A DNA stretch of 64,000 nucleotides from Eledone cirrhosa (Eukaryota): NCBI GenBank assembly GCA_964016885.1, contig CAXHJY010000254.1:1-64000 (forward strand), in the 5' to 3' direction. Positions 993 to 63,219 of the stretch are shown in pieces (the stretch's first letter is position 1; every line of letters starts with the position of its first letter). A program made the position numbers and the translations under genes. The notes below the pieces were generated by a model. That model was given only the letters and a program-made list of their open reading frames with translations, was not told where the DNA came from and did no database searches.

Positions 993-1060
993 ATTTTATT
1001 ATGCGCATTTCAAAAACAAACATCATCATGCAATAATATTGTGTTTTCATCAGATAAAAC
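993..1060 (-). ncRNA. Type I hammerhead ribozyme in the PLE family B pLTR
   Basis: Minus strand: GTTTTAT-CTGATGA-(AT-rich bulged stem II)-GAAA-TGCGCA-TA-ATAAAAT. 7-bp stem I, palindromic minimal stem III (ATGCGCAT), AUA cleavage site. Confidence 0.85.
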
Positions 1061-1158
1061 AGGAGAACATGATATGAAAGGCTAAAAAACACTTGTGGAT
1101 AGTGCAGTTTTAAATCAACATATGCAAAAGTGGTTTTAGATTGATGAGTGATATTGGG

Positions 1159-1583
1159 AAAAATATTTTATTTAGAGGGGGGGGGGGGGGTGGAAAGGAT
1201 GAAAAAGGGGAGGAGATGAGAGGGAGAGATGGGTGATAGAGAGAAAGAGATAGTTTTTATAACTGAGAGAAGATATATTGTTTTACATAGAGAGGTTGAA
1301 AACCGTTGGAAGATAATGTATAAATTAAAAGAATTTGAAAATTAACGAAGGGAAGATATGTACGAGGAAAAGATATTTTATTTAGGGAGGGGGGGGAAGG
1401 ATGAAAAAAGGGGGAGGAGATGAGAGTGAAGGTGGAGAGGGAGAGATGGGTGATAGAGAGAAAGAGATAGTTTTTATAACTGAGAAAAGATATATTGTTT
1501 TACATAGAGAGGTTGAGAACCGTTGGAAGATAATGTATAAATTAAAAGAATTTGAAAATTAACGAAGGGAATTTATGTATGAA
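1159..1583. repeat. Tandem duplication (about 210 bp x2) in the PLE family B 3' UTR
   Basis: GAGAGATGGGTGATAGAGAGAAAGAGATAG...GAAAATTAACGAAGGGAA occurs twice in tandem. Confidence 0.9.
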
Positions 1584-3363
1584 GATAGAGAGAAAAAATA
1601 ATAATTGTGGATGAATATTCCAACGTCAAAAAAAGTGTATGTTGATAAGTATTGTGGCAATTTCAAATTAACGAAGAGAAAAAATTATTACGGTTTGTGT
1701 GTAGAAGGATTTGAGAAAAATAATGTGAAGTTAAAGTTTGTATATTGAATGAATTGATAATATGTGCGAATAAGAGTTAATATGTATTAAGAATGAGTCG
1801 TTGATGGGGAGAAAAAAATAATAAATTAAGGATGAAATTGAGATTAAAAAGTTTTATGATAGAGAGAAAAAATAATAATAATTGCGGATGAATATTCTAA
1901 CGTCAAAAAAACAAATGCATATGTTATGAAGGATTTTACAAGGTGAAGATAGAAAGAGGGTAATGAGTAAACAAGTATTATAGAGTGTATAATGCCCTTT
2001 GAAGTAAGGTAGGAAGATGGGTATATTTTAAAGAGGTGTATGTATATGTGCCTTTGAGAAAAGATTCTAAATTGATAAAGAATTGAATATTAACTGTATA
2101 CTTTGTGAAAAGTCCTCTGGAATTTATGCAGGCAGATAGAAAACAAATCTGTACGTCTATTTATTATAGAATCTAGATAGAGATAATGGTAAATTTTTCA
2201 TTTAGGCAGAGATTACAGATTTTAGATAGAGCTGTTCAAGTATGAGGATGCAGAAGAAACCTTCTTCCAAAAGATGGTATATTTAATGTTTTTGTCTTTC
2301 AAGGACCATATGAGTTCTGAGAGAGCCGTGTTGGTTCTTTTAAGTTTGTATTTGAAAGATGAATGGTGATTATAGAGACGAGCTTTAAAAGAGGTGGAAG
2401 TGGAGCCAAAATAGGTGAAGGAATTGGTGCTTGTTATAACTTTACATTCATAAATTAAGTTTTTATCGAGACAATGGTTGTTGAGAGGACATTTATTTTT
2501 AATGCGGCAGTTGCAATTAGAGAGATTATTAATGAGTGACCTAGTGTTATCTATAGAAGGAATTGGACTGGAGAAGTTGTTTGCGATAGGAATAATAGGA
2601 ATAATAGTTTCTTGATTTAGAGTTGGATTATGAACATTTAGCGAAGTTGTGTTTGACGTTGTATTTGGGTTTACAGAAGTTAGCCTAGGGTTTACAATGA
2701 CGTCGGGAGTACTATTACTGTTATTATGAAATTCAATGTTGGAAGGAAGAGATTTAGTATTTAGTATTTTATTGTTGTGTTTAGAGATGATGTTGGAAAT
2801 ATTGGAGGGATGTAGAATAAGAAAATTTGATGGTGTGTTTGTTAAATATTTTACTATAGATATGTGAGGGAGGGAAGCATTTATTTAAGGCACTAAAAAA
2901 TAATTAGGAATATTGTTATTAATAGAGATGGAGAAAGGAGCATTATACCAGATTATGTTTTTGTATCTAGGTCTTTTATTAAAATTATTGGAATGATCAT
3001 GATTAATTATTCTACTGTAAGTTTTTCTAGAATTTGTTTCTTTACTATATTTGATTTTATCTGGATAGCCGGCTTTAGAAAGTGCGTTATTATAGTAATT
3101 GGCGTTAGCATCAAAGATGTTTTTATTAGAAGATATGTTAGATATTCTTTTTCCAATATTACTAACTATAGCATTCTTGATATTGGTAGGATGGTTAGAT
3201 TTAAAGTTAACATAATTTAGGTTCTCATTGTTTTTATGGTAAGGGTAATATAGGCCAGTGTCAAGATTAAGAGATACATCCAAGAAATTAGCTAGTTTGA
3301 TACTATTATCAAATTCAATTACCCTTACCATAAAAACAATGAGAACTTAAATTATGTTAACTT

Positions 3364-3500
3364 TACATACAGACTAGCTGGACACTCACTGTAAAGTGTC
3401 TAGTGAAAAACTCGGCACATGTACATATGTATACATGTGTGTATTTATATGCATACTAGTACTTCCGTATACATATGTAGATGTACACTTTAACTTAATT
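3364..3500. repeat. Unclassified interspersed repeat; inverted copy at 63861-63997
   Basis: Reverse complement of 63861-63997 with few differences. Confidence 0.85.
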
Positions 3501-6500
3501 ATATATAGGTATATATATATATATATATATATATAGGTATATATATATATATATAGGTATATATATATATATATAGGTATATATATATATATAGGTATAT
3601 ATATATATATATAGGTATATATATATATAGGTATATATATATATATAGGTATATATATAGGTATATATATATATATATGTCTATATATATATATATATGT
3701 CTATATATATATATATATATATATATATAGGTATATATATATATATATATATATATATAGGTATATATAATATATATATATATAGGTATATATATATATA
3801 TATATATATATATATAGGTATATATATATATATATATATATATATAGGTATTTATATATATATATAGGTATATATATATATATGTATATATATATATATA
3901 TATGTATATATATATATATATATGTATATATATATATATATATATATATATATATATATATATATATATGTATATATATATATATATATATATATATATA
4001 TATAGGTATATATATATATATATATATATAGGTATATATATATATATATATATATACCTATATATATATATATATATATACCTATATATATATATATATA
4101 TATATACCTATATATATATATATATATATATATATATACCTATATATATATATATATATACCTATATATATATATATATATACCTCTATATATATATATA
4201 TATATATACCTATATATATACCTATATATATATATATACCTATATATATATATATATATATATATATATATATATATATACATATATATATATATACATA
4301 TAATATATATACATATATATATATATAACCTATATATATATATACATATATATATATATACATATATATATATATACATATATATATATATATATATATA
4401 TATATATATATAGGTATATATATATATATATATAGGTATATATATATATATATATATATATATATGTATATATATATATATATGTATATATATATATATA
4501 TGTATATATATATATATATATGTATATATATATATATATGTATATGATATATATATATATATATATGTTATATATATATATATATATATGTATATATATA
4601 TATATATATATATATGTATATATATATATATATATGTATATATATATATATATGATATATATATATATATATGTATATGTATATATATATATATATATAT
4701 GTATAATGTATATATATATATATATATATGTATATATATATATATATATATATGTATATATATATATATATATATATGTATATATATATATATATATATA
4801 TATATATATATATATATATATATGTATATATATATATATATATATATATATATATATATGTATATATATATATTTATATATATATATATATATATATATG
4901 TATATATATATATATATATATATATATATATAATATATATATATGTATATATATATATATATATATATATATATATATATTTATGTATATATATATATAT
5001 ATATAGTATATATATATATATATATATATATGTATATATATATATGTATATATATATGTATATATATATATATGTATATATATATATGTATATATATGTA
5101 TATATATATATATATATATATATATGTATATATATATATATATATATATATATGTATATATATATATATGTATATATATATATATATGTATATATATATA
5201 TATATATATATGTATATATATATATATGTATATATTATATATATATGTATATATATATATATATATATGTATATATATATATATGTATATATATATATAT
5301 ATATATATGTATATATATGTATATATATATATATGTATATATATATATATATATATGTATATATATGTATATATATATATATGTATATATATATATATGT
5401 ATATATATATATATATATATATATAGGTATATATATATATATATATATATATATATATATATATATATATAGGTATATATATTATATAGGTATATATATA
5501 TATATAGGTATATATATATATATAGGTATATATATATATATATATATATATATAGGTATATATATATATATAGGTATATATATATATATATATATATATA
5601 GGTATATATATATATATATATATATAGGTATATATATATATATATATAGGTATATATATATATATATATATATATAGGTATATATATATATATATATATA
5701 TAGGTATATATATATATATAGGTATATATATATATATATATATATATAGGTATATATATATATATATATATATAGGTTATATATATATATATATATATAT
5801 ATAGGTATATATATATATATAGGTATATATATATATATAGGTATATATATATATATAGGTATATATATGTATATATATATATAGGTATATATATATATAT
5901 ATATATATATAGGTATATATATATATATATATATATAGGTATATATATATATATATATATAGGTATATATATATATATATATATATATATAGGTATATAT
6001 ATATATATATATATATAGGTATATATATATATATATATATATATAGGTATATATATATATATATATATATATATATAGGTATATATATATATATATATAT
6101 ATATAGGTATATATATATATATATATATAATATATAGGTATATATATATATATATATATATAGGTATATATATATATATATAGGTATATATATATATATA
6201 TATATATATATATATATAGGTATATATATATATATATATATATATATAGGTATATATATATATATATATATATATATATATATATAGGTATATATATATA
6301 TATATATATATATAGGTATATATATATATATATATATATAGGTATATATATATATATATATATATAGGTATATATATATATATATATATATAGGTATATA
6401 TATATATATATATATAGGTATATATATATATATATATATATATATAGGTATATATATATATATATATATATATATATATAGGTATATATATATATATATA

Positions 6501-62012: not shown

Positions 62013-62051
62013 TGAACAAGTACTTTCATGCTTTCGCAATCTTCAGGTTCA
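62013..62051 (-). ncRNA. 39-nt minimal type I hammerhead in an isolated 240-bp island
   Basis: TGAAC-CTGAAGA-T-TGC-GAAA-GCA-T-GAAA-GTAC-TT-GTTCA; perfect 5-bp stem I, GNRA-capped stem II, palindromic stem III. Confidence 0.88.
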
Positions 62052-62939
62052 TGATATGTGGTGACAGTCGAGTTTGCAATTTTCAACTGTGTATATAAAT
62101 ATGTATATATATATATATATGTATATATATATATATATGTATATATATGTATATATATATATATATGTATATATATGTATATATATATATATATATATAT
62201 ATATGTATATATATATGTATATATATATATATGTATATATATATATATGTATATATATATATATATGTATATATATATATATATGTATATATATATATAT
62301 ATATGTATATATATATATGTATATATATATATATATGTATATATATATATATATGTATATATATATATATGTATATATATATATATATGTATATATATAT
62401 ATATATGTATGTATATATATATATATATATGTATATATATAGATATATATGTATATATATATATATATATATATATGTATATATATATATATGTATATAT
62501 ATATATATGTATATATATATATATATGTATATATATATATATGTATATATATATATATGTATATATATATATATATGTATATATATATATATATGTATAT
62601 ATATATATATATGTATATATATATATATATGTATATAGATATATATATGTATATATATATATATATATATATGTATATATATATATATATGTATATATAT
62701 ATATATATATGTATATATATATATTTCGTTTCTGAATTTGTTTAGCAAGATTCTTTATCTGAAATCGTGTGTTGAAACCGATATTGTTACACTTTGGGAG
62801 GGTCATGCTGCCAATAAGAAACACACGCACCAGTTGCTTTTACTTCAATTTAATTTATTAAATATTTATAAATTTACAAATTTATAAATTTCTGGTTGGT
62901 TGGTTGGTTCCACAACCAGATAGTTGTTTATATATATAT

Positions 62940-62984
62940 AGTCATAGTTCTTTCGTCACACACTCTGTGACCTCTTCAGTGACT
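62940..62984 (-). ncRNA. Minimal type I hammerhead (left arm)
   Basis: Reverse complement of 63175-63219. Confidence 0.88.
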
Positions 62985-63174
62985 GGGGATTTCTTTCTTC
63001 GTTTCTGTGCCTTTCATTTCTTCTATCCTACGCCATTTTGTTTGTATATATGTATATATATATGTATATATATGTATATGTATATATATGTATATATATG
63101 TATATATACACACACAAACAAAACGGTGTAGGATAGAAGAAAGGAAAGGCACAGAAACGAAGAAAGAAATCCCC

Positions 63175-63219
63175 AGTCACTGAAGAGGTCACAGAGTGTG
63201 TGACGAAAGAACTATGACT
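63175..63219 (+). ncRNA. Minimal type I hammerhead (right arm)
   Basis: AGTCA-CTGAAGA-G-GTCACA-GAGTG-TGTGAC-GAAA-GAAC-TA-TGACT. Confidence 0.88.

Follow-up and report, generated by a model that had tools for sequence, protein, structure and literature searches.

We analysed 64,000 nucleotides of the Eledone cirrhosa genome (GenBank assembly GCA_964016885.1, contig CAXHJY010000254.1, positions 1 to 64,000; hereafter, the window), in which hammerhead ribozymes lie on small islands embedded in (TA)n tracts. The hammerheads are very probably the pseudo-long terminal repeat (pseudo-LTR) ends of nine families (A–I) of Penelope-like elements (PLEs) that carry open reading frames (ORFs) and insert into (TA)n, and the islands are short copies of these ends, likely dead by-products of insertion and not independent mobile units. 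An ORF encoding a reverse transcriptase (RT) and a GIY-YIG domain was linked to every family, copies ended at two 3′ sites, head-to-head pairs joined one end of each kind, and the 5′ ends of several families gathered at family-specific positions, which we call walls. The G+C content of the window is 29%, and TA tract makes up approximately 29% of its length, with the islands in between.

Hammerhead folds and their cores

We searched the window with a type I hammerhead descriptor, which was fixed after the sites were known, using 60 island-wise dinucleotide shuffles as the control. The strict descriptor gave 4 hits from 3 families against a shuffle mean of 0.15 (maximum 1), and the relaxed descriptor gave 9 hits from 5 families against a mean of 0.78 (maximum 3). 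Type I folds were located at 992–1061, 29514, 41554, 59279, 39110–39189, 62013–62051, and 62940–62984 on the minus strand and at 42469 and 63175–63219 on the plus strand. An Rfam scan of the window gave 306 matches, of which the 150 listed were TA-driven microRNA hits and included no hammerhead. The descriptor hits agree with the original prediction, a model's reading of the window, in the coordinates of the folds and in a motif number above that of dinucleotide-shuffled sequence. The prediction of about ten unrelated families was correct in that many distinct families are present, but there are nine, and the families at 993 (G) and 37839 (F) have near-identical stems I and III. The folds that it listed are real, but the window copies at 37839 (cut at the core), 44491 (G at 16.1), and 57411 (one stem I pair) fail the descriptor, the core of the four-copy family is CAGA and not CUGA, and the fold at 39110 has U4C. 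The sites at 28890 and 37195 are, as predicted, the 3′ halves of a hammerhead (family E), whose complete form with a U3-A8 core is present in loci L080–L082; the supposed 3′ half at 57165–57181 is instead the 3′ tail of family F.

The canonical CUGANGA core was found in families A, B, F, G, and I and the U3-A8 core in D and E. A core of CUGANGA/GAAA or U3-A8, stems I–III, and a UH site occurred together in the window for A, B, and G and in other copies for E, F, and I, and families C, D, and H lack the combination of canonical core and stem I. The core of family C is CAGA (U4A) in 100 of the 100 matches listed with that base left free in the pattern and in 42 of 45 aligned copies; since the search patterns of A, B, C, and D include part of the core, the core tallies of these four carry a bias. 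The 32 copies of family H comprised 18 with CCGA (U4C), a known weak natural variant (PMC3088659), and 10 with CUGA. Family D (57411) has a stem I of a single pair in every copy inspected. Truncation at the core removed the stem I 5′ strand from the window copy of family F, and relatives such as L183 keep it; between subfamilies of F, the letters of stem II differ and the pairing is kept, as judged by eye. The G at 16.1 in family I is U in four of five copies. Any self-cleavage would be weak and dimer- or protein-assisted, and families C and D can probably do without it.

Linkage of every family to a PLE

The whole genome (3.0 Gb) was searched with one sequence pattern per family for the seven families A–F and H, with G and I outside the counts. 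The matches numbered 8,258 for A (62013), 16,692 for B (62940/63175), 20,092 for C (29514 and its relatives), 674 for D, 36,796 for E (28890/37195), and 4,164 for H (39110), so the counts range from 674 to 36,796. The pattern for F (37839) matched only itself because it spans a chimeric junction, and the 11,917 matches of F were obtained with a pattern taken from a sister subfamily. The sum of 98,593 matches predicts approximately 2 per 64 kb, and this TA-rich window carries about a dozen. A DNA search with the 62013 island as the query gave no match; the words of the island are probably too common.

Translations and tblastn linked an ORF for RT plus GIY-YIG to each of the nine families. The parents of family A are found in L028/L029 and L272, with a separate ORF1 of 449 amino acids (aa) and an ORF2 of 728 aa, and those of family B in L035/L046 and L273/L274 (an ORF of 714 aa). 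Families C, G, and I have their ORFs inside the window itself, the parent ORF of family E lies in L081/L082, and the ORF was found in 7 of 30 loci for D and 4 of 30 for H. Family F had been taken as non-autonomous, as none of 30 loci contained a sense ORF at a distance of up to 1.5 kb; this was overturned when the ORF was reached via a long 3′ untranslated region (UTR) in 23 of 30 loci. Pfam assigned RVT_1 to just one of the eight PLE pieces scanned. The community of autonomous, TA-targeting PLEs with minimal type I hammerheads in their pseudo-LTRs, as originally proposed, is supported.

The CxCX5C linker is present in C, E, F, G, H, and a further family, J, which the original prediction had missed. 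The RWK and DKT motifs were read in E (as RWR and DKT), H, and J, and the N-termini of C, F, and G lie outside the sequence read. By these motif marks, C, E, F, G, H, and J are assigned to the Hydra clade, and the ORF of L081 resembles published Hydra proteins in a comparison by eye. An assignment of the window ORFs to Naiad or Nematis was dropped since the motifs point to Hydra. Families A, B, D, and I appear to be of Neptune/Nematis type, with no finer split between the two: the CX2-5CxxC linker precedes the C-terminal GIY-YIG domain in A, B, and D and is not visible in the broken I copy, and the motif reads DKG in A and I and DKS in B. The Hydra-type families C, E, F, G, H, and J have 3′ UTRs of 1–1.4 kb. 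The 3′ UTR of family F (L212–L241) contains a variable TA/TG microsatellite into which other families insert in turn (L220).

Two 3′ ends and their pairing

Copies of six families (A, B, C, E, F, and H) end at one of two fixed 3′ ends, a short one and a tailed one. Across all nine families, (TA)4 was found within 30 nt of 338 of 387 3′ ends, counted with no random control; the 3′ ends adjoining TA were 45/49 in C, 78/82 in E, 84/94 in F, 28/33 in H, and 7/14 in G. We found 79 head-to-head pairs with touching 5′ ends, a tally that includes approximately four double-counted rows. They comprised 71 short plus tailed pairs, 1 short plus short, 0 tailed plus tailed, and 7 unclassed, so the short plus tailed rule holds for 71 of the 72 classifiable pairs. 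The arrangement occurs in the window at 37100, 41456, 62728, and 13237. Both arms of the family E pairs end near the wall of that family and neither arm is consistently longer (16/9/7). The 27 E pairs parsed have 25 distinct junctions, and short E units would therefore be rebuilt at each insertion. Partial tandems, an inverted truncated copy, and a tail at one end, which are structural marks of PLEs, are present. Among the sequencing runs listed, none recorded as RNA contained these sequences. In four contig sets of unrecorded kind from one study, loose ends lay close to the wall as well as at both 3′ sites, and the summed depth was far higher over the short unit, a value that is evidence neither of copy number nor of expression.

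5′ walls and starts at the predicted cleavage site

Positions in the copies are signed relative to C3 of the core. The 5′ ends cluster at +39 to +49 in family E (60 of 71 within 11 nt), −46 to −33 in A (20/31), −72 to −55 in B (12/33), −90 to −74 in F (17/19), and −76 to −70 in G (7/14), and a cluster is also seen in I (4/5). The same walls were found in copies of E, G, and I that were not selected by pattern. The per-base stop rate is 0.16 inside the E wall and 0.007 upstream. Among 29 ORF-linked E copies, 25 cross the wall, 4 end before it, and none stops at it (25/25 crossing versus short copies, Fisher p 8e-15), which argues against an intrinsic RT stop at that position. That short copies stop at the wall and ORF-linked copies cross it points to a defined, putative RNA start. 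The first letter of the E wall is the A of TCATTT, 25 nt below TATTTAAA and within the loop of stem II. In family A, the wall is 31 nt below TATAAAAG, CCAAT boxes are present further upstream, and copies starting at the wall lack the TATA and CCAAT boxes. The B wall encloses what we take to be a YY1-like motif and lies below presumed NRF1- and ETS-like motifs. A splice acceptor as the cause of the E wall was rejected, given that a large number of ends precede the AG and no common added exon was found.

In regards to the hammerhead itself, the predicted cleavage site is the starting point of 3 of 29 ORF-linked rows of family A, which represent two full-length insertions. Both head-to-head arms of the family A pair in L289 (1235–1498) begin within 1 nt of the predicted site, and the upstream pseudo-LTR of an insertion in L272 (4207–4547) begins at it. 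A general use of cleaved RNA as the template was considered and rejected: for copies that no pattern had selected, the 5′ ends at most 3 nt from the site numbered 0/16 in B, 0/25 in C, 0/4 in D, 2/48 in E, 2/63 in F, 0/14 in G, 1/7 in H, and 0/7 in I, which is no enrichment. Counts on pattern-selected copies are biased, since the patterns used either contain the core or run across the site.

Origin of the islands

A two-primer model with run-off to a putative RNA 5′ end has, in our judgement, an even chance of being correct. The element protein would cut both strands of a TA tract and prime two complementary DNAs (cDNAs), one from each DNA end, at the two start sites within the pseudo-LTR. On a linear RNA starting at the pseudo-LTR promoter, both cDNAs would run off its 5′ end after 60–330 nt and then be joined head to head, and long copies would derive from longer, tandem, or circular templates. 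The PLE protein Poseidon PAc, from another clade, is reported to cut and extend both strands of AT-rich DNA in vitro, to start at two internal sites bounding the tail, to need RNA downstream of them, and not to need hammerhead cleavage (PMC11167929). The two start sites, the cutting and extension of both strands, the AT-rich target, and the dispensable cleavage resemble what is seen or proposed here. The two differ in that no reads ending at the cleavage site were reported there and two family A insertions here start at the predicted site. The PLE promoter is reported to sit in the pseudo-LTR (PMC2377424), for which TATA and initiator (Inr) elements have been noted (PMC3846280). More speculatively, the genome might record the integration step of PLEs. 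Every insertion would be a two-primer event that most often yields a run-off to an RNA start set by the promoter; in family E this start would fall within the hammerhead and leave the first ribozyme incomplete each time, cleaved RNA would sometimes serve as a template in vivo, and a 20,000-copy family would have spread with a U4A core. We hold this wider scheme only tentatively.

Several points weigh against the preferred reading. The RNA start at the walls and the hammerhead cleavage are predicted from DNA letters alone, the wall windows were picked after the data were seen, and the promoter motifs are consensus patterns matched in AT-rich DNA. Loci were sampled either as best-scoring hits or as the exact matches that come first on a single chromosome, a choice that favours young copies. 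Full-length copies starting at the wall number 0/29 in E and 2/29 in A, which counts against the reading if RNAs ran from the putative start through the ORF. Families C, D, and H have no such upstream wall; the 5′ ends of D, and also of C, are widely spread, and 11 of 25 ends in C (−7 to +10) and 9 of 36 in H (−21 to +3) coincide with the 5′ edge of the hammerhead itself, consistent with a structural stop. These ends in C and H, together with the many palindromic junctions and the self-priming proposed for head-to-head PLE palindromes (PMC3846280), would suit a different explanation, in which the walls and inverted pairs arise because RT stalls at structured RNA and a single cDNA folds back to prime itself, and not from a transcription start and two primers. 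We consider this unlikely on the whole, since all 25 of the ORF-linked E copies that reach the wall cross it, the E wall lies in a loop and not at a stem, and neither arm of the E pairs is always longer.

It is less probable still that some islands are self-propagating non-autonomous units, either solo pseudo-LTRs resembling short interspersed nuclear elements (SINEs) or retrozymes, moved in trans by PLE protein. Such PLE derivatives and retrozymes are reported to exist (PMC8557442; 10.64898/2026.07.22.740005), and short E copies have near-fixed ends and far outnumber ORF copies (a whole hammerhead in 6 among 88 sampled). However, the E pairs differ in their junctions, most short E copies have no 5′ half of the ribozyme, A copies starting at the wall are devoid of the promoter boxes, and short copies are up to 100% identical to an ORF-linked pseudo-LTR. 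Retrozyme-type head-to-tail repeats of 150–450 bp, each with a hammerhead, were found neither in the window nor in 240 fetched loci, which were not chosen to reveal arrays; same-strand neighbours less than 1 kb apart made up 17 rows, with TA in the gap of 16 and a spacing of 670 nt in the remaining one. The separate class of retrozyme-like passengers in the original prediction was thus not supported, given also the ORF link of every family. Plain random 5′ truncation, with the clustering as a sampling artefact, is the least probable explanation and can be given very little weight. It would account for the spread of 5′ ends in C and D, and the patterns do favour copies that contain them, but the ends are sharply clustered in several other families, the walls recur in copies not picked by pattern (E, G, and I), and the stop rates at the E wall are uneven; random truncation is contradicted for A, E, and G. 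The random 5′ truncation that would have counted against the original prediction was not borne out, given the clustered ends of several families.

Copies and other elements in the window

Family G is represented by a 5′-truncated Hydra-clade PLE at 967–3494 (minus strand), with a broken RT/GIY-YIG ORF at 2222–3346 and a hammerhead at 992–1061 with a CUGAUGA core, a palindromic stem III, and a UA site. The family J insertion, also Hydra-clade, occupies 13237–22235 on both strands (~9 kb, >99% self-identical, unit ~3.1 kb) as two tandem minus copies and one inverted plus copy, with the tail at one end only. It carries a weak, hammerhead-like tenth fold, with cores at 13503 (−), 16615 (−), and 22077 (+), a long stem II, a palindromic stem III, a UC site, and a stem I of 1–2 bp. 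Family C has a truncated copy with a tail at 29368–30947 (−; fold 29514–29564, CAGA core, U17), a head-to-head pair at 41456–42532 (tailed minus arm with fold 41554–41604, short plus arm with fold 42469–42519), and a copy at 59265–61521 (−; fold 59279–59329) with an RT/GIY-YIG ORF at 60261–61505. Family E has a short copy of the tailed arm only at 28884–29008 (+), which holds the 3′ half of the U3-A8 hammerhead, and a head-to-head pair at 37100–37316 (short arm minus, tailed arm plus), whose joint lies within the stem II loop. Family F has a copy cut at the core at 37800–37920 (−), in which 37835–37891 lacks the stem I 5′ strand and is joined to an inverted tail piece, and a tail piece without a hammerhead half at 57104–57173 (−).

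The short copy of family H at 39098–39258 (−) contains the hammerhead at 39110–39189, with an 11-bp stem I, the CCGA core, and a GUA site. Family I is a truncated Neptune/Nematis-type PLE at 44385–46540 (−; outer limits approximate) with a broken ORF at 44910–45974 and a minimal hammerhead at 44491–44526. The short copy of family D at 57230–57678 (−) has a vestigial fold at 57415–57446 with a palindromic stem III. Family A has a short copy at 61852–62089 (−; hammerhead 62013–62051) that begins at the family wall (−44), and family B has a head-to-head pair at 62728–63367 (tailed minus arm 62728–63042 with fold 62940–62984; short plus arm 63110–63367 with fold 63175–63219).

Other elements share the window. 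Several copies belong to a long interspersed nuclear element (LINE) in which Pfam identified RT and a PHD finger (26470–28602, 42825–44257, 46929–48795, and 58282–59208). The 3′ ends of this LINE resemble SINEs, carry (ATC)n tails, and likewise adjoin TA tracts (1–156, 39300, 41038, and 57892). A PIF1 helicase fragment, Helitron-like (31119–33497), and a LINE RT fragment with a 541-aa open frame (34150–35824) lie between TA tracts. A mariner-like element of 900 bp (40048–40947) has inverted ends of approximately 100 bp and a Mos1-type helix-turn-helix. Further TA-bounded islands with no hammerhead hit, which recur here or among the loci fetched, are found at 56035–56245, 56669–56879, 48837–49613, 7339–7753, and 63793–64000, and a 273-aa open frame at 54948–55769 has a coiled-coil look and a weak SlyX hit below the cut-off.

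Relation to known systems and implications

The families are of a known kind. Multiple hammerhead families in one genome, single motifs mostly from truncated PLEs, and the U3-A8 core have been reported (PMC4209133), as have more than 6,000 hammerhead motifs in 16 families in a coral genome (PMC7229834), opposite-strand pairs, and TA targeting. The minimal PLE hammerheads described in PMC4209133 share with ours the palindromic stem III, the unpaired base before stem II, and opposite-strand pairs 100–700 bp apart; ours differ in the fixed U4A of C, the frequent U4C of H, the long stems II/III of some families, and counts in the tens of thousands, and no 5′ wall or short plus tailed count appears in the accessible part of that report. 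Hydra-clade PLEs are reported to have canonical hammerheads and to insert into (TA)n (PMC8557442). They have in common with our families RWK, DKT, the CxCX5C linker, a C-terminal GIY-YIG domain, a tail at one end, and an inverted 5′-truncated copy, whereas here six such families (C, E, F, G, H, and J) with their long 3′ UTRs lie in one window. The Neptune/Nematis PLEs of the same report share the CX2-5CxxC linker before the C-terminal GIY-YIG domain, the DKG of A and I, and the microsatellite bias, and family B differs by its DKS. Non-LTR retrozymes, described as PLE derivatives in a 2026 preprint, are likewise short and non-coding, with type I hammerheads and kinship to PLE pseudo-LTRs, but they form head-to-tail tandems giving circular RNA, whereas the islands here are single or head to head, often with half a ribozyme (PMC7229834; 10.64898/2026.07.22.740005). 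In the literature searched, which mostly excluded subscription papers and whose supplements may list such cores, we found no account of 5′ walls, a pairing count, or a fixed U4A core. The present analysis adds the short plus tailed pairing, the 5′ walls, a U4A-core family of approximately 20,000 copies, and two full-length family A insertions that start at the predicted cleavage site.

TA tracts gather insertions from many families and therefore form an archipelago, which is expected wherever several TA-targeting PLE families are active. For annotators, islands of 100–450 bp may be mistaken for SINEs, miniature inverted-repeat transposable elements (MITEs), or retrozymes. The approximately 99,000 pattern matches in seven families with rule-bound ends are a natural data set, and with the pairing rule, the walls, and the starts at the predicted cleavage site, PLE integration and the role of the hammerhead can be studied at exact positions.

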